A DNA stretch of 64,000 nucleotides from positions 22,444,001 through 22,508,000 of the forward strand of contig NC_079170.1 in NCBI RefSeq assembly GCF_947568905.1, written 5' to 3'. The stretch comes from Ostrea edulis. Taxonomy: Eukaryota. Position 1 is the stretch's first letter. Every line of letters begins with the position of its first letter. Shown piece after piece: positions 27,900 to 46,830 of this stretch. The notes under the pieces are model-generated. The model was given only the letters and a program-made list of their open reading frames with translations. It had not been told where the DNA came from and searched no databases. A program made the position numbers and the translations under genes.

Positions 27900-30060
27900 T
27901 GCAAGGTGAAGATAACGAACAGTGATCAATCTCATAACTCCTACAAGCAATACAAAATAGATAGTTGGGCAAACACGGACCCTTGGACAAACCAGAGGTG
28001 GGATCAGGTGCCTAGGAGGAGTAAGAATCCCCTGTTGACCGGTCACACCCGCCGTGAGCCCATATCCTGATCAGGTAAACAGAGTTATCCGCAGTCAAAA
28101 TCAATGTGCCAGAACGGCTTAACAATCGGTATGAAACACATCAGACAGCATTTGACCCAATGCGAGGTTGTATTGACGAACTAGATCGTTATAACGACCA
28201 TAGCATTTGCGAAATGCTGACTTCAATCGAGACTGTTGAAATCCCTGTACCATCAACTTGTTTGTCAGTAGCTTACCTCGATTTAAAAACTGACTATACC
28301 CAGAACAAGGTCTTGCATATCGAATCAGTTGAGATATATAAACACCATATGCAGGTGATAATGGAACATTGCTACATAAATGTGGGAAGTTGACGATGGA
28401 GAAGCTGAAATCATCCCGTTTGTCATACAGTTGAGTTGTCAGTTTGCCGTTAATGTCTACTTTCAATAAAATATCTAAGTATGAAGCAGAAGTGGACGAC
28501 TCTGTGGTGTCCTTTATTTCGAGCTCACAGGGATATATCAAATCGACATATGCATGAAAGCTATCATTGTTAATAGACAAAACGTCATCGATATATTTAA
28601 AAGTCGAATTGAAGGTCACAGCGAGAGTTTGTCTTCTCACATAGAAGTTTTTGAATAAATTCTGCTTCATATGAATATAAAAACAGGTCAGCTAACAAAG
28701 GAGCACAATTCGTGCCCATGGGAATTCCAACAGACTGTTGGAAGACCTGATTACCAAAGACCACGAAGATATTGTGAATGAGGAACTCTAGCATATATTT
28801 TATTTCAACTTCAGAGTACTTGTGCGTGGAATCAGAGTGGTGTTTACCAAAGTAAGTTTTTGAATGACTGATCACTAGATATGAATATTTCCGTTTTCCA
28901 TTTTTGTTGAAGAAGCAACTGTCTATGATGTCAAAAAGTCTAGTCTTTAATTTATCGTGAGGAATGGTCGTGTATAGTGTTGAAAAGTCATAGGTTTTAA
29001 TGCTATTGATTTGGGGAAAATTCTGTGATTTCAAGTTTACTAAAAGTTCTTTAGAATTTTTTAGAATCCACATTTGATTAACACCACTTCTGGAATATGT
29101 AGTCGCACAGTAAGTTTGAAGTTTCTCCTTCACAGCTGTTAACATTTTCGTGAGGATCAAAGATAGGGGCTTGGTAGAGCACTTACTGGATCCAGCAATG
29201 TATCTTTGTTTGCAAGGGTTTTTATGTAGTTTAGGAATCCAGTATAGGTACGGTAACTCATATTCATTCGACCCATTGACTGGAATATTAAATGTGTCTA
29301 AACTTGAAGCATGGTTTTGAAGAATTTCGTCTTTTGAAAGGGCAGTTGGAGTATAAGTATGATTACCAAAAGTGGAATTAATGCCAAGTTCGTTTAAAAT
29401 ACAGTTGTAATAATGAGCCTTACAAACAAAGACAATGTTGTTACTAGCTTTGTCAGCTGGAACCAAAACATATTCCTCATGTAACCTATCTAATTCTTTT
29501 ATCACTTCTGGTTTACTAAACACAGAAGGATAGATGGTACGTACTTTTGTTTTCATGTGTCTAATGCGGGATTTTAATATCCCTCTTATGCTTTTAACCC
29601 ATTCTGACAATGTATCAAGTTCTTCTTTTTCATATTTACCCCATCGTCTGGCATAATCTTCGACAGAACTCATAATAGAGATGAAGTTCTGTCGCCAATT
29701 AAAAGACCGAGGTTCTCTGTATTTAGGACCTTTAATAATAAGTGATTTGAGGTCCTCATTTTCAACTATATCAACATCACCAGTAATGACATGTCCAGCT
29801 GGACTGTAGTTGAAAGAAGATGAAGAACAAGAACATGTTGGTGGATTACGTATAAGATGATCTATATCTAAGCACTGCAAAGTTTGTTTATAATTAAAAA
29901 GTTTGGATGCAATAGTAGAAGTATAGCTGTAGGAAATACAGGGTGTAGACTTGAACTTGAAATAAGTTGGAATACATGACTGAACCCTTTTATGACGAAG
30001 AATGTTGCTGAAGTGGAGCGACCATAAAGATACAATATGTGGTAAAGCTAATACAATCTT
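27900..30060 (-). mobile_element. Penelope-like retroelement, 5'-truncated, with near-complete RT and 3' UTR
   Basis: WIPKLHK, YDFSTLYTTIPH, GIPMGTNCAPLLADLFL, YIDDVL and DFSFSIVNFP...AYGVYISQLIRY. No endonuclease domain is seen in the retained part. Confidence 0.85.
28119..30040 (-). pseudogene. Penelope-like reverse transcriptase with one frameshift near 28640
   Basis: ORFs 28597-29880 and 28119-28670 overlap and join into one RT. The N-terminal LRHKRVQSCIPTYFKFKSTPCISY segment reads upstream of 29880. Confidence 0.85.
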
Positions 30061-33531: not shown

Positions 33532-34650
33532 GTACAAATTTAATTCAATACTGTTTTTACGAGATGTACTGGTGCTTATATATATAAACGTAGAGGTAAA
33601 CATATGCGCTCTCTCATTAAAAAGTAATACTAGTAGATACATGTTGTAGATCATAATTGATTTTCATCTTGAATTCTCGTCTAATAGAATGTTGAATAAA
33701 ATGATATTAAGTACAAAAAATAACTAGATACGTTTACTATGACACAAGCAAAATAAGATTTGCCAAGACTTTCACTACGTGCAACTTTAAGTATGTAACT
33801 CTAATTAATTTTATCGATCGTCATTGGTACTTGGCTATTCAGATGAAAGATATACTCCAATTGCAAGAAAAATGAATTGATTTACCTCTCCCCGCCAATG
33901 TAATATTTGTTGAAAGGAATTCTACCCCTTCTTAATATAATGAACTCTCCTGGAAACTAGGAGGGCTAGTTTGTTCGTTTTAAAGTCACCTGAGTATACC
34001 CAGATGAATTATTGCTATCTGCTTTATTAGTGCGTTAACATTTGAACATTTTCAAAATAGGTATCATGTCAATCTGTACGAAACTGACATGTGGAATTAT
34101 TGTGGTGAGTGGAATAAAAACTATGAATGTTGTGTGCGTTGCTCCCTTGGGATCTGATGGGAGGGGCCAAAACCTTAAAAAAAATCTATGATGCAATCTT
34201 GACAAATTCTTTGAAACTTTGTCGACAAAATGCAACAGTGCAACACTTTGTATGCGAACAATAAAAATATATAGGATAAATTTTCCACCTTTTTCCTAAA
34301 GGCATTGTTTACAACATTTCATAACCCATTTCCGTAAACATTTCATAGCATTATTTTCATAGCACTCCATAGACTCCGGTATTTAGATGGGATTTAAGAA
34401 AATCAATACTGCAAATGACCACTATTTGCATTCACACTAGTTGACAATCGACATGTGATTCATGTCACAAAGGATGCTATTCCGATGTTGGTTTAATTAT
34501 TGCCTAGAACTAACGTCACTGGCAAATTTGATAAGCAACGTAAACGTTTCTCAAATTCATTCCAGATATGTCGAGTGGTAATAAATCGGGATAAATCAGC
34601 TGTTCAAGACAAGACGTACACAACATCATTCTGCTGAGTAAGAACATCCC

Positions 34651-35074
34651 TAGCCTGGTACCTGAGGCCTTCCGATGTTCAAAGAACGAAGGCCAGGTAT
34701 CGGATGTCGAATGGATTCTTCCACTGATCAAAATCCAATATGGCGGACTCAATGGTAAGTAATGGGAATGTACGTAAATGAGCGTATCATGGCTTAATTA
34801 GCTGTGTCACTTTCGATTTTATGTCATTAGTTACCAGAGAGAGACCTTAGGAAATGTATAACACTTGGTTTTCCATGTGACACGCTTGTTTGATATAGTC
34901 TTATCCCTTTGTTTTCAAGTAAGTAGGTGATTCATCAACTCGCTCATTTACGTACATTCCCATTACTTACCATTGAGTCCGCCATATTGGATTTTGATCA
35001 GTGGAAGAATCCATTCTACATCCGATACCTGGCCTTCGTTCTTTGAACATCAGAAGGCCTCGGGTACCAGACTA
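34651..35074. mobile_element. MITE with 134-bp TIRs and a 9-bp TSD (Mutator-like)
   Basis: Arms 34651-34784 and 34941-35074; TSD GAACATCCC at 34642-34650 and 35075-35083. Confidence 0.85.
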
Positions 35075-35145
35075 GAACATCCCTGACTACAAGCGCGATA
35101 TCTGTTTTTGCATTGTGTGTCCTGCATTGAGATGCGATTTAAATC

Positions 35146-36413: not shown

Positions 36414-36961
36414 TGTAGCGTGTATCCCTATTAATTCGCAAAATGCGGCGGTTGAGATCCCTCAGATAACTTGCTGAGGATTCTAGCAGTTCAATATATA
36501 CATATAAATGATTGAAGTAACGTATTTACAATTTTATTAATCAATTATGTACAAATCCCGGCTCTTGACTTTACTGTCATGGCTCTGTTTGGCTCCCGGC
36601 TCTTGGCTCAATCCGGCTCTGGTAGCTCGGCTCACTTTGGCTCCCGGCTCTTACAGCGCGGCTCAATTGGCTCTTTTGAGTCCCAGCTCTTACAGCTCGA
36701 GTTTTGATTATTACGATTAATTAAAACAGGAAAGACTTGTTCAGTCACGTCTGATTTTAATCAAAAGAAATAAACAATATGAATATTACCTTTTATCTAC
36801 GGTACTACCGATCTTCTCACTCTGGAGTCAAGTGCAAAAAATGATTATGAATCCACCGCCTCGCTTCTTTATATACCCTTTAGCGAGACTAACGCCACCT
36901 ATCGGTCATACTCCAAAATTGAATCCTACACGGTCGGAATATCTTTCTCCGGATCGTCTCA
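36414..36961 (-). repeat. Gypsy 3' LTR (548 bp)
   Basis: About 9 substitutions and one 7-bp indel (CGGCTCT) seen versus the 5' LTR. Confidence 0.95.
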
Positions 36962-37235: not shown

Positions 37236-37979
37236 TTATTTATCTTCCTCAATCATAACAATATGTTCAATGTCTTTGTTACCCTCTTTCCACTTTGTAA
37301 TGGTCCACTCGACCCTATGCACGCTCCTCCCTTCTGTCTGAGTACCTGTTTCCGTCAAATGTGGTCTTTTAATAATAGGTCGGGCAGGAACTCCGGTAGA
37401 AGATGATAGAGGTTCCTTCCGTTTTGGAGTTGTGACCGGTATGAGTGAAGTTGGCTTTCTCAGTACCCTTCCAACGTGTAAAGGGTTCTTTGCTGCTTCT
37501 GCCTCCGCGCTCAGCTTTTCATCCTTTCTAATGACGGTTACCTCCGCTTCAGATTCTGTTTCTGAAATTTCCCCTAATATACTCCGCAAATCTCCAGGAT
37601 CAGCATTCTCCCAGTCATCATCTGAAAGTTTTCTTCCTTCTATTGTGTCTTTAGATCCATTTGGCTTCTCCGAAACTTATGGCAGAGCTGATTCTGTCAT
37701 ACCCATCTCCTTTCCATTATCGCTCTGAGAAGCATTGGACAACGAAGTGGTAACTTTCTGTTGTTCCAAATCAAAATTTCTCTTCTTGTGTCTGTTGAGG
37801 TTCCATAGCTTATTAGTACTAAAACTGCATTCAACCCGATCACAAAGATATTTTTTTTGGTCCATCTGTTTTAGTCCACATTCAGTAATGTGCTTTGTGA
37901 TCTCCACCATATCAAAGCTCCTAAACCTGCACATGGGACACTTGTGTTCTTTACGTGGAGTTAACTTTGTTTGAGGCAT
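37236..37979 (-). pseudogene. Gypsy additional ORF3: two C2H2-like zinc fingers plus acidic/low-complexity region, one premature TAA
   Basis: ORFs 37677-37979 and 37236-37589 share a frame and the gap reads open (DDDWENADPGDL). CPMC...HITEC and CDRVEC...RHKKR motifs. A splice acceptor (TTTTTTTCTAATGCATTTCAG) lies 3 nt before the ATG. Confidence 0.7.
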
Positions 37980-38089
37980 CTTCTGAAATGCATTAGAAAA
38001 AAATACATAAAGAGCGTTACTACTTGGGGAATGTATAATATTTGTGTTACTGCATTTTGATAAAGGAAAACAATAAAATGGTTGCTATA

Positions 38090-41000
38090 TCAGAGGTCAA
38101 CAATGTAGTCTCCCAAATATTTCGGCCTACGCTGTTTTCGTTTTCCCCGAGCATTTTCTTGATCATGCTCATTGCCTTTTTCAAAGAGCTCTGTATTTTC
38201 TTCACTGGCATCATCTGTCACTGAACAAGTAGTATCAGCAACTACTTGGCTTTCACCTCTCAGAAGTTGAGGATGCTTCATTCTCATACGGTCTACATGT
38301 ATGATTCGAAATTTCCCATACGCACCAGTTTACTTTGTAGGTCACTTCTGAACACCTTTCTTCCACTACAAAGGGTCCTCGCCAAAACTGAGTCAACTTA
38401 GGAGACTTCCCAACTGCATATCGTGGGAAGTGTACATAGACTTCATCTCCGTTTTTAAAGGTTTGCCAATTTAATCTTGTGTCGTAAGGGCTCTTCTGCC
38501 TTAGCATGAAACCGATGGCATTTTCCCGCACAAATGAATTCGCCAATTCCAGCTTTTCCTTCAAACCCACTGTTGGACAGGTATTTTTTTCATAGCTGGT
38601 GGCATCTCAAATGCAATGTCAAGAGGTGTTCTGACCTCTCTTCCCAACAATAAATAATTGGGGCTGAATCCAGTGGACTCGTGTTCCACTGACCTATATG
38701 CCATCAGCACGTATGGTAACTGGTCGTCCCAGTTTGATTGGTATTTATCAACCAGAGTCTTTAGCATTGTCAACAGAGTTTTGTTAAATCTTTCCACGAG
38801 ACCATCACACTGAGGATGATAGGGACTTGTTCTGGTTTTCTTAATGTTCAAAATTTTACACATTTCAGTGAAAATCTTTCCCTCAAACTGTTTACCTTGG
38901 TCTGAGTGAATGGACACAGGCACTCCAAACTTTGATACCACCTCCTGATCCAACAACGAAGCAATGGTGATTGTCTCCATATTAGGCATTGGAAATGCTT
39001 CCACCCATTTTGTAAAATAATAACTATATACCGGTTGCCATTTTCTGTTTGGGGAAGCTCGCCAACTATATCCAGAGCTTTTCTCTCCATTGGCATTCCG
39101 GCTCCCAATGTTTGCATTGGAGCTCTTTTGTTTTGGGTTAGTGGCTTGGACCTGCAGCATACTTCACATCCTTTAATGTAATGTCTCACATCTCTTTGCA
39201 ATCCGGACCAGTAGAATTTCTGTCTTATTTTGCTCAATGTTTTCCTGACCCCTAGATGCCCAGACGTCTTGTGGTCATGGCAATAATCAAGGACTTTGCG
39301 CCTATTCGAAAATGTAATGACGGCTTGAAGTGTGATTCCTTTTTCATCTACCCATTTCCTGTATAATATTTCATCTTGAATCTCCAAGGATTGTCTTTGC
39401 GCCCACAGTGATTTCGACATAACACCACTGTAACTTAAATCGTTTTGTGTTAGTTTGGTACTACTTTTGAGCCATATCTTTACGAGGTTTATCTCTTTAT
39501 CATTCTTTTGCAAACATGCTAATGAAAGTTCGTCATCATCGCCATTTTGTTCACCACTAGTGTTGGCATTTTCATTTGCAGAAACAGTCCGTACATGTTT
39601 TTGATTCTTTTGGTCTTCTGTAGACCGAGCAGATTTCTCACAGCAAGGATCATCTTTACTCTTACTGCAGTGGCGTCTGCTGAGTCCATCAGCATTTCTG
39701 TGTTGAGATCCTGGGCGGTGCTGTATTGTCATGTCGTACATGCTCAGAATTTCGATCCAACGAGCAAGCTGACCTTCTGGTTCTTTAAAATTGAGGAGCC
39801 ACCTCAATGAACCATGGTCTGTACGAATTTTAAACCTTCCCCCATACAAATAATGTCTGAACTGTTTCACAAAATAGACAACAGCAAGAAGTTCTTTCTT
39901 AGTTACGCAATATTTTCTTTCAGACTTGCTAAGTGCCCTACTTGCACAGGATATGACTCTCTCAGACTCTCCCTGTTTCTGAGAAAGAACAGCTCCAATA
40001 GCCATATCACTGGCATCGGTGTCGACTATGAAAGTCTGGTTAAAGTCTGGAAAAGCAAGAATTGGAGCACTGATCAAATGTGCTTTCAACTTGTCGAAGG
40101 ATGACTGGCATTCATCTGTCCATTGAAACTTCACCCCTTTGTTTGTCAGTTTGTGTAGTGGTTTAGCTGTTTTACTAAAATCTTTAACAAATCTCCGGTA
40201 ATAACCACACAATCCGAGGAACGATCTTACGTCTTTTACAGAGGTTGGCTCAGGCCAGAATTTGATGGCTTCTACTTTCTTGGGATCTGTAGTCACACCT
40301 GATTCGGAGATAATGTGTCCCAAATACTCAACCTGCTTATCGTACAAAGTGCATTTCCTTGCCTTTAACTTCAGTCCAGCAGTATGGAGACGGTCAAATA
40401 CTTTCTGAAGACTATTTGTCATTTCCTCAAAGGTTTTGCCAAAGACAATAATGTCATCTAAGTATAATAGACATATCTCCCACTGAAGTCCACATAAGAC
40501 AGTTTCCATAAGCCTTTCAAAAGTTGAGGGTGCGTTACAAAGCCCAAAAGGCATTACTTTGAACTGGTATAGGCCTTTGTTAGTGATGAACGCAGTTTTT
40601 GGTCTATCGTCAGGCTCCATCTCGACTTACCAGTAGCCAGACGAGAGATCCAGAGTTGAGAACCAACGTGCTCCAGATAAGTGATCGAGTGTCTCATCAA
40701 TCCTTGGTAGAGGATAGGCGTCTTTGACAGTGATGTCATTCAACTTTCTGTAATCTACACAGAAACGAACGCTCCCATCTTTCTTCTGTACAGGACAACT
40801 CCTGACGCCCATGGACCTGCCGACTTTTCAATGACATCAGCCTTAAGCATGTCGTCCAACTGACTATCTATGTATCGTTCAGTGGCGTAGCTTCCATTGA
40901 GGCAACCGAGGCAGCTGCCTCGGTAAAAAAAAAAAAAAAACAACCACCTTCTACGTTGTTAAAATGTCGATAGCTTCTGGGGGGCGCAGCCCCCCAGACC

Positions 41001-41165
41001 CCCTGCCTCGGTAATATTCAAACCCAAGCTACGCCTATGTCGTTTCCAATGGACTGGAGTTCTTCGGAGGGGTTGTCGTATAGGAGCCTTTGAACCTGTG
41101 TTGATAGAATGTTTAATTACATCAGTTCTACCAAATCCTTTCATCTTTTGCAAATAAGTTAGCAT
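38090..41165 (-). pseudogene. Gypsy pol (RT, RNase H, integrase), disrupted
   Basis: [58 protein letters not shown] and GLVERFN, with frameshifts, a stop and a MITE insertion. Confidence 0.93.
40880..41039. mobile_element. MITE inserted in Gypsy pol (CA(G/T)(T/A)GGCGTAGCT TIRs, 5-bp TSD)
   Basis: Starts CAGTGGCGTAGCT and ends AGCTACGCCTATG; TSD TCGTT at 40875-40879 and 41040-41044. Confidence 0.85.
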
Positions 41166-43227
41166 TGCGCAAGAGCAAAGATTTTAATTCTTGCTTTTGA
41201 TCTGAGCTCAACCTTCCGCTTGATCGTTGTAATAGCTCCTCCAAGGCTGGTGAAAGTTCCTTTGATGACTCTGAGGGAGTTCCCATTTCTCCAACAACAC
41301 ATTGTACAGGAGTCAACTTCGCTACTATGGTTCCTTTGTAGATAGTCTGAACAACAAAAAGAGGGTTCATGAACCTGACAGGTACTGACTCTTTAGTGGT
41401 GACAAGCACTTTGCCAATTATACCTTTCTCTGATTTCAAAAAGTGTTCATCCCCTTCTATCAATGCAATACCATCAGTTATTTGTTCTTTGTTAGAGGTG
41501 CACACATCGCAGCTTGTAACAATTTCTGATCGGGGTGGTATGTGGACTGTAGCTGCTGTAGCAATGCGATAGCATCCTATATATCCTTTCTTTACGAGTG
41601 AAATGGGTGTTCCATCGATCCGTAATTCCATGGCACTCATAGCAATGACACATTTGATCTTTATCAGAAAGTCTAATCCAAGGATCGCGTCTACTGACAG
41701 ATTCATAACAATGGCCATCGTGTTGTATACAACATCATTGATCATAAACGTGGTTTTCAACTGTCCATGCGTAATCAGAGGATCTGAATTCGCTTGCAGT
41801 ACAGGCGAATTTACCTCTCGCAGTATATCTGTCGAGCCATTTCCGTAAATTCTATTAAATGCCTGTTTTGATAAGAGAGACAATGTAGCTCCTGAATCAA
41901 CTAAAAGGTGAAGTTCGAGCTCATTAACATATCCTTTAATGAATATTACCCCTTCTCCACTAACACCAACTTTTCCGGGAGGATTTTGCGGATTTAACTG
42001 CTCTGTTTTGCCAGATGTGTTCTGCAATGAGCTTGGTGTTGCAGAGCTGTTTGGTCTTACTGTCTTAGAGCGGCATTCTTTCTTTATGTGACCTTTCTTG
42101 CCACAGTTATAGCACTCTATATCTTTTCGCCAATTAGAATCTCTGCTGGACTTGCGATCTGTTCTTCGTCTTGTGTCTCTTTCTCTTAGTTCTTTCAGCT
42201 CCCGTGTGATTGTAGACATTGTTCTCTGGAGTTCTGTGATTGTGTCATTTACTTTACCCAATTCGTCGGCTACTGTACCAGACGAATCTTGTCCAACGGC
42301 TCTTATCAAAGAATTAGTATCCCCAATTCTTTGTTCAGTTTTCAAGAAAGCCTCTAATTCGATAGCATGCCTAAATGCTTCATTCAAATTCTTTGGTCTT
42401 GCCTGTTTAATACGCAATCGCTTATCTGAAATAGCTAGTGCCTCGATGAAATGATCCTTGGCAAGAGTCTCTTTTACATCTGCAGGAACTGTAGGGTATG
42501 CCAAATTTACCAGACGTCTAATATGCTGTCCTAACTCTGGAATGGATTCCGAAGCTCTTTGTCTGCGCTCTCTCAACTGCGTTCTGTATAAATCTATTTG
42601 ATCTGGTGGAGCGAATCTATCATCCAAAGCAGATACAAGCTGATCATAGCTCATTTCCCTACCATCATATATGTTTCCGAGAATACCTTGTGCACTTCCT
42701 CTGAATGATACGGAGAGGTATAGACCTTTTGTCGTCTCATCCCATTGGCACAGCTTTGCACACGCTTCAAAGTGTGATTTGTAATCTAGCCAAGATGTAG
42801 AACCATCGTAAGTCGCTGGCTTTATGTTCGGGATGCTCTGTCGTCCTTTTGCTGCATAGGAGCTGTGCGTCTCATATTTTGGTCTTGCACTGGAATACGA
42901 CTTATGAGCCTGAGGTCGTCTCATTGTTACATTTCTGTCTTCCTTATTAAGATAAGGGCTAAGGTCGTATTCATCGCGTTCTGTGTCTGTCTTGTGAATG
43001 TCTTGAGATGAATCTTCAAATCTCACAGATTTTCTCCTGGCTCCTGATTGCTCTTCTGGCTCACTGTCAGTAACTGTGCAAGCTGTTCTAAACCCGGAGT
43101 CCATTCCGATTTGGCTGGGTGCATTAACAGGTTTTAAAGGTGTCGAGTGGCTATGCCTAGACAACTCCAGTTCATAAGAGGCAATTTGCTGCTCAAGTTC
43201 CCTTATCGTGGCATTTATATCCTCCAT
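41128..43227 (-). CDS. Gypsy gag (CCHC knuckle) and protease
   Basis: First ATG after the PBS at 43227; IKPATYDGSTSWLDY, CYNCGKKGHIKKEC and LLVDSGATLS. Confidence 0.9.
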   Translation of the reverse strand: MEDINATIRELEQQIASYELELSRHSHSTPLKPVNAPSQIGMDSGFRTACTVTDSEPEEQSGARRKSVRFEDSSQDIHKTDTERDEYDLSPYLNKEDRNVTMRRPQAHKSYSSARPKYETHSSYAAKGRQSIPNIKPATYDGSTSWLDYKSHFEACAKLCQWDETTKGLYLSVSFRGSAQGILGNIYDGREMSYDQLVSALDDRFAPPDQIDLYRTQLRERRQRASESIPELGQHIRRLVNLAYPTVPADVKETLAKDHFIEALAISDKRLRIKQARPKNLNEAFRHAIELEAFLKTEQRIGDTNSLIRAVGQDSSGTVADELGKVNDTITELQRTMSTITRELKELRERDTRRRTDRKSSRDSNWRKDIECYNCGKKGHIKKECRSKTVRPNSSATPSSLQNTSGKTEQLNPQNPPGKVGVSGEGVIFIKGYVNELELHLLVDSGATLSLLSKQAFNRIYGNGSTDILREVNSPVLQANSDPLITHGQLKTTFMINDVVYNTMAIVMNLSVDAILGLDFLIKIKCVIAMSAMELRIDGTPISLVKKGYIGCYRIATAATVHIPPRSEIVTSCDVCTSNKEQITDGIALIEGDEHFLKSEKGIIGKVLVTTKESVPVRFMNPLFVVQTIYKGTIVAKLTPVQCVVGEMGTPSESSKELSPALEELLQRSSGRLSSDQKQELKSLLLRNANLFAKDERIW

Positions 43228-43262: not shown

Positions 43263-43281
43263 AATCCCACCGCTGCCACCA
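43263..43281 (-). other. Primer-binding site (tRNA-Leu type)
   Basis: TGGTGGCAGCGGTGGGATT on the minus strand, 5 nt inside the 5' LTR boundary. Confidence 0.85.
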
Positions 43282-43286
43282 AAATT

Positions 43287-43841
43287 TGTAGCGTGTATCC
43301 CTATTAATTCGCAAAATGCGGCGGTTGAGATCCCTCAGATAACTTGCTGAGGATTCTAGCAGTTCAATATATACATATAAATGATTGAAGTAACGTATTT
43401 ACAATTTTATTAATCAATTATGTACAAATCCCGGTTCTTGACTTTACTGTCGTGGCTCTGTTTGGCTCCCGGCTCTTGACTCAATCCGGCTCTCGGCTCT
43501 GGTAGCTCGGCTCACTTTGGCTCCCGGCTCTTACAGCGCGGCTCAATTGGCTCTTTTGAGTCCCAGCTCTTACAGCTCGAGTTTTGATTATTACGATTAA
43601 TTAAAACAGGAAAGACTTGTTCAGTCACGTCTGATTTTAATCAAAAGAAATAAACAATATGAATATTACCTTTTATCTACGGTACTACCGATCTTCTCAC
43701 TCTGGAGTCAAGTGCAAAAAATGATGATGAATCCACCGCCTCGCTTCTTTATATACCCTTTAGCGAGACTAACGCCACCTATCGGTCATACTCTAAACTT
43801 AAATCCTACACGATCGGAATATATTTCTCCGGATCGTCTCA
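43287..43841 (-). repeat. Gypsy 5' LTR (555 bp)
   Basis: Matches 36414-36961. Confidence 0.95.
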
Positions 43842-43965: not shown

Positions 43966-44154
43966 GCAAAATAGTTTTGTAGAAGAAGCCATGGTCATGG
44001 AAGCTTCTTAATCAACCTTTAAAGCTATGCTTGTAACTTCAGAACAACGTATCGATATACATGAACGGACTAGGCTTTAATTTCACATTTGGTGTCCTAC
44101 TTATACTCCAACGTCCCCTTTAAAGCATGAATTTGATTAAAATCATGCTTAAAT

Positions 44155-44810
44155 TTTCAATACATATCCAGTCAATGGGACGATTGAATATGAATTACCG
44201 TGCCTATACTGGATTCCTAAACTTCATCAAAACCTTTACAGAGATACAAGATACATATCTGGAATCTGGATCCAGTAAATGTTTTACCAAACATCTATCT
44301 TTGCTCCTCACGACGTGAAGTAGAAACTTCAAACGCCTTGTGCCACAACAACAGAAGTGGCATAAATCAAATGTGGATTCTTCCAAAAAAATCATTCATA
44401 TGTGGATATATCCCAGTGAACTTGAAATAAAAGACACCACAGGGTTTTCCACATTTGCTTCGTACTTAGATATTTCATTGAACATAGATGTTAACGGCAT
44501 AGTATCAACTCAATTTTATGACAAACGGGATGCCTTCAGCTTCTTCATCGTCAACCTCCCATATTTATGTAGCAATATTTTGATTATCATCTGCATATGA
44601 TATTTATGCCTCTCAACTGATTAGATAAACACGAGTTTGCTCTGTGTATGATCACTTTTTAAATCAAGACAGACTATAGACAAATAAGTTAATGTTACAG
44701 GGATTTCAGTAGTCTCGTTTAAAGTCAGCCTTTCGCAAATTCTAAATAACGATCTAGGTTATCAACACAACCTGTCATTTGGTCAAATACTGTCTGACAT
44801 GTTTCATCCA
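44155..44810 (+). mobile_element. Internally deleted, decayed Penelope-like RT copy
   Basis: The LYWIPKLH...QMWIL region is joined directly to the IYPSELEIKDTT...DKRDAFSFFIVNLP region. Confidence 0.8.
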
Positions 44811-44904
44811 AGTCGTGCTGCCAGTTCCTTAAGTTCAAATTTACAAACAAATGAATAGATGCCGTCAACATAAGCAACATTTTTCGTGATAAAAAGTCCA
44901 ATCG

Positions 44905-46830
44905 TGTATTCCATCTTATTTTAAGTTAAAGTCTACACACTGTATTTCCTACAAATATACTTCAAACTTTTCAATTATAAACAAACTTTGCAGTGCCTAG
45001 ATATAGACCATCTTATAATTAATCCACCTACGTGTTATTGTTCTTCGTCTTCTTTCAACTATAGTCCAGCTGGACATGTCATCATTGGTGATGTTGATAT
45101 TGTTGAAGATGAGGACCTCAAATCACTTATTCTTAAAGGTCCTAAATACAGAGAACCTCGGTCCTTCAATTGGCGATAGAATTTCATCTCTATTATGAAT
45201 TTTGTCGAGGATTATGCCAGACGATGGGCTAAATATGAAAAAGAATACCTTGATACATTGTCAGAATGGATTAAAAGTATAAGAGGAATATTAAGATCCC
45301 GCATTAGACATATGAAAACAAAAGTACGTACAATCTATCCTGATGTGTTCAGTAAACGAGAAGTGATAATTTTTTTAAGATAGATTACATAAGGAATATG
45401 TTTTGGTTCCAGCTGACAAAGTTTATAAAAACATTGTGTTTGTAAGGTTCAGTATTACAACTGTATTTTAATAAGAAGTTGGCATTACTTCCACTTTTGG
45501 CAATCGTTCCTATACTCAAACTGCCCTTTCAAAAGACGAAATCCTTCAAAACCATGCTTCAGTTTTAGACACATTTAATATCCCAGTCAATGGGTCGGAT
45601 GAATATGAGTTACCGTAGCTATACTGGATTCCTAAACTTCATAAAAACCTTTACAAACAAAGATACATTGCTGGATCCAGTAAATGTTCTACCAAGCCCG
45701 TATCTTCGCTCCTCACAAAAATATAAACAGCTGTGAGGGAGAAACTTAAAACGCACTGTGCTACTACATTTGTCAGAAGTGGTGTAAATAGATGTGGATT
45801 CTAAAAAATTCCAAAGAATTTTTAGTAAACTTGAATCACGAAACTTTTCTCAAATCAACATCAAAACGTATTACTTTTCAACTCTTTAGACGATAATTCC
45901 TCGCGATAAATTAGAGACTAGACTTTTTAATATCATAGACAGTTGCTTCTTCAACACAAATGGAAAATGCAAATATTCCTATCTACTGATCAGTCATCCA
46001 AAAAATCACTTCGTTAAACACCACTCTGATTCCACGCACAAGTACTCTGAAGTTGAAATAAATATGCTGCAGTTCCTCATTGACAATATCTTCGTGGTCT
46101 TTGGTGGTCAGGTCTTCCAACAGACTGTTTGAATTCCCATGGCCACGGATTGTGATCCTTTGTTAGCTGACCTGTTTTTATAGTCCTATGAAGTAGAATC
46201 TATCCAAAATATTCTACGTGAGAAGAAAAAATCTCTTGCTGTGGCCTTCAATTCGACATTTAGATATATCGACGATGCATTATCTATTAACAATAATAAT
46301 TTTCATTCATATGTCGATTCCATATATCCGAATGAACTTGAAATAAGACACCAGAGTCGTCCAATTCTGCTTCATACTTGGATATTTTATTGAAAGTAGA
46401 CATTAACGGCAAACTAACAACTCAACTTTATGATAACCGGGATGATTTCAACTTCTCCATCGTCAACTTCCCACATATATGTAGCAATATTCCATTATCA
46501 CCTGCATATGGTGTTTACATCTCTCAACTGATTCGATAGGCTAAAGCTTGTTTTGTGTATGGTCAGTTTTTAAATTGAAGCAGGCTACTGACAAGCAAGT
46601 GATGGTGCAGGAGTTCCAACAGTCTCGTTGACAATCAGCATTTCGCAAATTCTATCGTCGATATGGCGATCTAGTTCTAGTTCGTCAATACAACCTATCA
46701 TAGGGTCAAATGCTGTCTGATGCGTTTCATACCGATGGCTAGGACGTTCTTGGCACACTGATTTTGACGACGGATAACTCCGTTTACTTGATCAAGATAT
46801 CGGGCTCACGGCGGGTGTGACCGGTCGACA
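44905..46830 (+). mobile_element. Decayed Penelope-like element copy (RT plus part of 3' UTR)
   Basis: Colinear with 28035-29990 in the opposite orientation, with many stops and frameshifts. Confidence 0.85.

Follow-up and report, generated by a model that had tools for sequence, protein, structure and literature searches.

Accessory genes and histone mimics comparable to ORF3

In errantiviruses, retroviruses and rotifer LTR elements, a gene placed after pol and before the 3' LTR, env or an env-position ORF3, is expressed from a separate spliced message, as passages of PMC5408684 describe. The oyster gene considered here, also called ORF3, has the same position and mode of expression, but, unlike env, it lacks a signal and any membrane segment. 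For rotifer ORF3, these passages name the types env, TM, coiled-coil, GDSL and DEDDy and make no mention of zinc. Another Gypsy accessory protein made from spliced RNA is CERV of the C. elegans element Cer1, which is nuclear, has exons in common with gag, contains H, M and G domains and exports RNA, according to the relevant parts of PMC10309623. ORF3 differs from CERV in having an ATG of its own, a pair of fingers, a TQT motif and an H3-like tail.

Some host proteins are built in a similar way. SNAG factors (Snail, Gfi1) bear an H3-tail-like N-terminal peptide on a zinc-finger protein, as does ORF3; in the sections of PMC5066116 that deal with them they are host repressors with P-R-S-F, whereas ORF3 is encoded by the element and has x-x-T-K-x-T-x-R-K. 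The transcription factor ASCIZ/ATMIN (PMC5963919) and Panoramix (PMC7861614) resemble ORF3 in being disordered and having TQT motifs for LC8; as these sources partly describe, both are host proteins, and ASCIZ has many such motifs against one to three in ORF3.

Several proteins of mobile elements or viruses are aimed at host chromatin, as is proposed below for ORF3. VANC of plant VANDAL DNA transposons are anti-silencing proteins, and influenza NS1 is a viral histone mimic, as is SARS-CoV-2 ORF8 in the partial account consulted. None of these three comes from an LTR retrotransposon; their likeness to ORF3 would be one of role, and no sequence link is expected.

The retrotransposon and its third gene

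The window, that is, the whole stretch of DNA analysed, comprises 64,000 nucleotides of the Ostrea edulis genome (assembly GCF_947568905.1, contig NC_079170.1, positions 22,444,001 to 22,508,000). It contains a Ty3/Gypsy LTR retrotransposon, in which LTRs, a primer site and the order gag, then PR-RT-RH-IN, are all present. The LTR pair (43841-43287 and 36961-36414) is ~97% alike and flanked by a 4-nt target duplication, and ORF3 is located after integrase and before the 3' LTR. The features of the element are as follows.

43287..43841, minus strand: 5' LTR, one of the LTR pair
43747..43758, minus strand: TATA box of the 5' LTR; a TATA-like site was found in 24/26 ORF3 family LTRs tested
43670..43730, minus strand: predicted first exon (R region), short and non-coding, with no ATG and a start placed from TATA spacing
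43664..43672, minus strand: predicted splice donor (AAG/GTAATA), upstream of the primer-binding site; the corresponding donor is on record as used in another family, not in that of the window
43265..43281, minus strand: primer-binding site, a motif common to most families
41128..43227, minus strand: gag-protease, 3' end broken in the window copy
40874..41040, no strand given: small, very high-copy insertion of ~165 nt splitting gag-pol, with very high depth and skipped by contigs of 4/4 runs
38090..40626, minus strand: RT, RNase H and integrase, frameshifted or stopped in the window copy
37983..38010, minus strand: polypyrimidine tract and AG splice acceptor
37236..37979, minus strand: ORF3, 247 codons
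37677..37679, minus strand: premature stop, ORF3 codon 101
36414..36961, minus strand: 3' LTR with GAGCC array and AATAAA

A 247-codon frame with a single premature stop after pol and ahead of the 3' LTR, preceded by a strong splice acceptor 3 nt before the ATG, had been reported in the first-pass annotation. Both were confirmed, the frame at 37979-37236 (minus strand) and the acceptor as ...TTTCAG ending at 37983, so that the exon begins at 37982. The window copy is decayed: its gag-pol is broken and carries the 165-nt insertion, ORF3 has a stop, and the last His of finger 2 is gone.

A GAGCC/GGCTC array is situated in the LTR of this element. It was considered as a target of ORF3 and rejected as a general one because it is family-specific, being the top 5-mer in only 2/23 ORF3-bearing LTRs tested.

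Contigs from four runs of unrecorded kind cover the element evenly, in a DNA-like manner, with no joint at 37982, and have no bearing on expression. A database gene model matching the window copy (P0002) joins the integrase tail to ORF3, skipping the stop region, and is likely a prediction artefact. Elsewhere in the window, several copies of another repeat, 75-90% alike and in both orientations, lie at 28000-30000 and 44100-46800, and a 135-nt inverted repeat with arms 97% complementary and a short core between them (34650-35075) looks like a miniature DNA transposon.

Distribution of ORF3 among elements and species

A large group of oyster and scallop retrotransposons carries ORF3 as a conserved extra gene. 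Its first 100 residues match at least 118 places of the genome at 30-100% identity, and relatives were found at no fewer than 116 other places in O. edulis, in some 30 Gypsy families. Inspection of 118 stretches (all 116 other loci and 2 further ones) revealed a gag or pol domain upstream of ORF3 in 116, integrase within 1.7 kb in 99 and an LTR pair in 78.

As a control, 40 of the 83 listed RT matches away from ORF3 matches were picked by longest open frame. ORF3 is present in 24 of these 40 elements, picked by RT alone. Among the 16 without it, the place of ORF3 is truncated, deleted or unreadable in 3, 7 represent one short family, 2 look like nested loss and 4 bear other ORFs with finger-like motifs. 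In an RT-RNase H tree built from 97 copies by quick search, the presence of ORF3 is clustered, with 5 changes (0/500 shuffles as low), which does not prove a single origin of the gene.

One family (L184, L204) nested among ORF3 carriers has kept the LTR donor and has no ORF3. Distant Gypsy families without ORF3 contain other long post-integrase ORFs (L189:6471-8405, L190, L192:2306-3562 on the minus strand, L187:6750-7217). These ORFs (645, 419, 156 aa) have finger-like motifs, with weak Pfam finger matches in 2/3, and that of L192 has TQT-like motifs close to its end.

The nearest named proteins to the window ORF3 are labelled as belonging to Ostrea edulis and other oysters, and named relatives, in searches of proteins only, come from Ostrea, Crassostrea/Magallana, Saccostrea, Pinctada, Pecten, Argopecten, Mizuhopecten and Ylistrum. 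One relative labelled as a bacterial symbiont bin is likely host DNA, and a metagenome scan gave 597 pattern matches, none of them a relative. Many copies are labelled in databases as host genes (REST-like, ZNF407-like, hunchback-like, HIVEP3-like).

Selection on ORF3

The protein has been conserved while synonymous sites became saturated, which points to purifying selection. In 14 between-family pairs, the N-terminal 70 codons gave pN 0.09-0.29 against pS 0.55-0.94, and in 11 pairs the rest of ORF3 gave pN 0.29-0.46 against pS 0.55-0.95 (one pair of the set was skipped, and one was within-family); the RT pN is 0.10-0.20 for comparison. These values are given because exact dN/dS is not estimable at saturated synonymous sites. 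For young copies within families, the pN/pS of ORF3 is 0.58.

The absence or neutral evolution of ORF3 in sibling copies, and a recent one-off capture of a host exon with no spliced transcript, had been named in the first-pass annotation as outcomes that would tell against its reading. Neither was found: ORF3 recurs in some 30 families, pN is below saturated pS between them, and genomic copies of spliced RNA exist. It is true that many copies, that of the window included, are broken, as a neutral captured exon would be, but the saturated synonymous sites beside a conserved protein and the spread over several bivalve genera make this explanation extremely improbable.

Among 27 copies with a gag-pol frame of at least 1,550 residues, ORF3 has at least 190 residues in 18 and is shortened in 9, so that it is dispensable in cis. 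One and the same deletion in ORF3 is found in three of these, all young copies. Selected over time yet not needed in cis, ORF3 behaves as expected for a trans-acting factor.

Splicing to the ORF3 acceptor

A pyrimidine-rich YAG 0-20 nt before the ATG was found in 31/31 family representatives versus 529/3,206 gag-pol ATGs; this acceptor rule, like the donor window below, was fixed after inspection of the data. In 9 copies from six families, representing 6 junctions, all sequence from a GT to exactly the AG of the ORF3 acceptor is missing (L097/L099/L107, L114, L110, L090, L134 and the less clean L109/L131, with a weak donor and an 87% sibling). The junction ends share 1-4 bases. These copies are best read as spliced RNAs that were reverse-transcribed and reinserted, and they support the earlier proposal of a spliced subgenomic RNA with a working acceptor. 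About a dozen other deletions are not of the splice type, among them those of L096 and L146, with ends 81 and 86 nt ahead of the ATG.

The donors of the reinserted copies sit at different places in each family and hence are likely cryptic. The native donor likely belongs to the LTR and precedes the primer-binding site. A donor-like GT 55-95 nt after the TATA box occurs in 18/24 families versus 27/289 other LTR windows, three LTRs with no detectable TATA having been dropped; in ORF3-less LTRs, it occurs in 1/3. The predicted first exon has no ATG in 16/18 families.

In the copies L051 and L054, the 14 nt directly before ORF3 are identical to the end of their own LTR exon; in the LTR of most copies, GTAAGA follows this exon end. 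Nine of these 14 bases are also common to the protease linker; a protease-donor splice is rejected, no GT following at that point, and the LTR exon explains the structure instead. The two copies record LTR-exon-to-ORF3 splicing in one family, and by extension it is predicted in that of the window; their structure would fit a template switch between spliced ORF3 mRNA and full-length RNA. Together with the TATA-spaced GT, they agree with the prediction of a donor in the 5' LTR or leader. Pure LTR-spliced RNAs are not recopyable because the LTR donor precedes the primer site, which would also explain why no such reinsertions were seen.

Short LTR-gag-protease-ORF3-LTR derivatives recur in frame in several families (L051, L099, L107, L114, L090, L109, L131; P0156), and some of them have spread as several insertions. 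L110 is a mosaic, in which a splice to ORF3 after RNase H is followed by integrase sequence again before the 3' LTR.

A Gag-protease-ORF3 fusion may be supposed to be the working product, with a role in particle assembly, dynein-linked transport or integration targeting. All 5 protease-region junctions are in frame with the upstream protease-linker (the 2 later junctions are not), which a counter-silencing role does not fully explain, and a 793-aa Gag-PR-ORF3 protein is known elsewhere (P0156). However, the protease-region donors are placed differently in each family, the position-conserved donor sits in the LTR, and the ATG is kept right after the acceptor in all families. In addition, recopying is limited to RNAs that keep the primer site, which biases the junctions that are seen. 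In our opinion, this explanation is very doubtful.

Zinc fingers and other parts of the protein

The following parts were recognised in the ORF3 protein, with counts given for full-length clusters.

37950..37976, minus strand: histone H3 tail-like N-terminal peptide (PQTKLTPRK)
37878..37940, minus strand: zinc finger 1, C2HC
37776..37844, minus strand: zinc finger 2, of C2H2 type, without its last His in the window copy
37587..37622, minus strand: acidic W-x-DPG motif, 28/41 clusters
37449..37472, minus strand: basic R-K-x-T motif, 34/41 clusters
37332..37352, minus strand: LC8/DYNLL1-type TQT motif (ETGTQTE), 40/41 clusters
37239..37325, minus strand: predicted C-terminal beta-hairpin

In the structure model, the finger pair is ordered (residues 11-70, pLDDT >95), the middle is disordered and the C-terminus forms a hairpin. 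Two C2H2-like fingers had been expected. This holds for finger 2, apart from the last His in the window copy, and finger 1 turned out to be C2HC (CX2CX12HX3C); each pattern is found in 39/41 full-length clusters. PF00096 matches 18/22 at E<=0.1. Finger 2 has K/R at -1, N at +3 and R at +6, which we take to be a DNA-reading pattern.

Fold matches of the model are finger proteins, with none at E<=0.001 in the PDB and viral libraries. As to ZNF512-like proteins, the ZNF512 C2HC Pfam is not one of the 25 families listed out of 35, and Atlas rows gave 0.92-0.93 at low recognition, the shared features numbering 129-132. Ubiquitin binding of the UBZ4 type by finger 1, suggested by a weak TAX1BP1 fold match, is not favoured: it needs an Asp, which is absent here. 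An ORF3 subgroup (L115, L118 and relatives) has an extra H-H/C-x-C-C cluster directly before the TQT motif.

A 19-residue hydropathy window exceeded 1.6 in 2/52 clusters, with a maximum of 1.78. ORF3 thus has the spliced RNA to a post-pol acceptor that is characteristic of env, and by hydropathy and model tests no membrane anchor or fusion protein, in line with the first-pass view that it is not an envelope protein.

TQT motif and LC8

The TQT-type motif is located in a disordered region near the C-terminus. It fits the anchor for LC8, a dynein light chain, described in part of PMC6607443, where many TQT peptides are also stated not to bind LC8. A complex model of ORF3 with LC8 from the O. edulis genome scored 0.68, versus 0.12 for the best of 3 controls. 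The interface comprises residues 205-216, with runs agreeing in at least 88% of contacts and partner pLDDT of at least 55. The score mark was reached by 51/78 solved versus 2/108 mismatched microbial pairs, and by 39/65 solved versus 2/126 unrelated eukaryotic pairs. Because peptides lie outside this benchmark and like complexes have been solved, the model may show likeness to solved LC8-peptide structures, not binding.

The histone H3-like N-terminus

By its sequence, ORF3 is a putative H3 tail mimic, with five of nine positions in register. Compared with the genome's own H3 in 52 clusters, matches are found at T3 (44), K4 (48), T6 (49), R8 (36) and K9 (38), and almost none at R2 (0), Q5 (0) and A7 (2). 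The first residue is P, V or A in 49/52 clusters. Pro at position 7 in 27/52 yields TPRK, which also reads as a CDK site or nuclear signal. In likeness to the ORF3 N-termini, H3 was reached or beaten by 2/300,000 random 9-mers, 0/3,694 other Met starts and 0.1% of H3's own shuffles, in a test that was made post hoc and on clusters related to each other.

ORF3 may alternatively be a self-limiting repressor, which, in the manner of SNAG or NuRD-motif zinc-finger factors, brings a co-repressor to its own LTR. The SNAG layout, an N-terminal H3 mimic with fingers, is matched (PMC5066116, in part), and these factors, the closest host parallel, repress genes; the silencing complex PICTS also uses LC8 dimerisation, as noted in passages of PMC7861614; and young copies with broken ORF3 still spread. 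At the same time, the P-R-S-F motif is not found: R occurs at position 2 in 0/52 clusters, position 4 is K, not F, and H3's K4 is kept where the R, S and F of SNAG are absent. Retention over some 30 families would also be harder to explain by element-level selection. We regard self-repression as quite unlikely.

A factor like Rev or CERV, serving the export or protection of unspliced genomic RNA, is also unlikely, although it would have a task here: because the element has a donor near its 5' end and a strong acceptor, full-length RNA has to avoid being spliced. In Cer1, CERV made from spliced mRNA serves this purpose, as parts of PMC10309623 describe. The basic motifs and LC8 multimerisation would fit such a factor. 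On the other hand, ORF3 is unlike CERV in its domains as described, the H3-register N-terminus would be left without reason, and finger 2 has, by the recognition code, a DNA-reading pattern.

Proposed function of ORF3

Lineage-wide presence, selection, use of the acceptor, one native LTR-to-ORF3 junction and the motifs constitute the established part of the explanation. On balance, and with middling confidence, we suggest that ORF3 is a conserved accessory gene, spliced from the LTR, whose zinc-finger protein would counter host chromatin silencing via the H3-like N-terminus. This N-terminus and the LC8 motif give circumstantial support to a role as nuclear regulator or anti-silencing factor. 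The weakest step concerns the direction of the effect, which may be de-repression rather than self-repression.

In the proposed mechanism, a short LTR exon would be spliced to ORF3, and translation would start from its own ATG. Removal of Met would leave the H3-like tail free, DNA binding would fall to the fingers, and LC8 would pair two chains through TQT. The tail could then occupy an H3K4/K9 reader, writer or eraser. More tentatively, it may be supposed that, in a bivalve-wide lineage, an LC8-dimerised H3 tail mimic decoys or redirects H3K4/K9 silencing enzymes at LTRs, ORF3 being a counter-defence gene in the env slot.

Conclusions

Summarizing the comparison with known systems, ORF3 is expressed like env without being env; its build resembles that of SNAG factors and of ASCIZ, which also has zinc fingers, but it is neither; as an accessory protein, it has a parallel in CERV. 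No description of ORF3 was found in the literature consulted, including parts of PMC6238403, PMC9679248, PMC8556966, PMC10294476 and PMC7264820; Repbase, subscription papers and supplements could mention it.

The identification of ORF3 corrects annotation, many copies being filed as host genes, and reinserted spliced copies supply splice-site evidence without RNA data. The ways in which animal retrotransposons push back against chromatin silencing are largely open, and histone mimicry has been described mainly for viruses and host factors. Small and clearly bounded, the ORF3 gene consists of modules that can be separated and tested one by one, and it belongs to a repeat lineage that is dominant in farmed bivalves.
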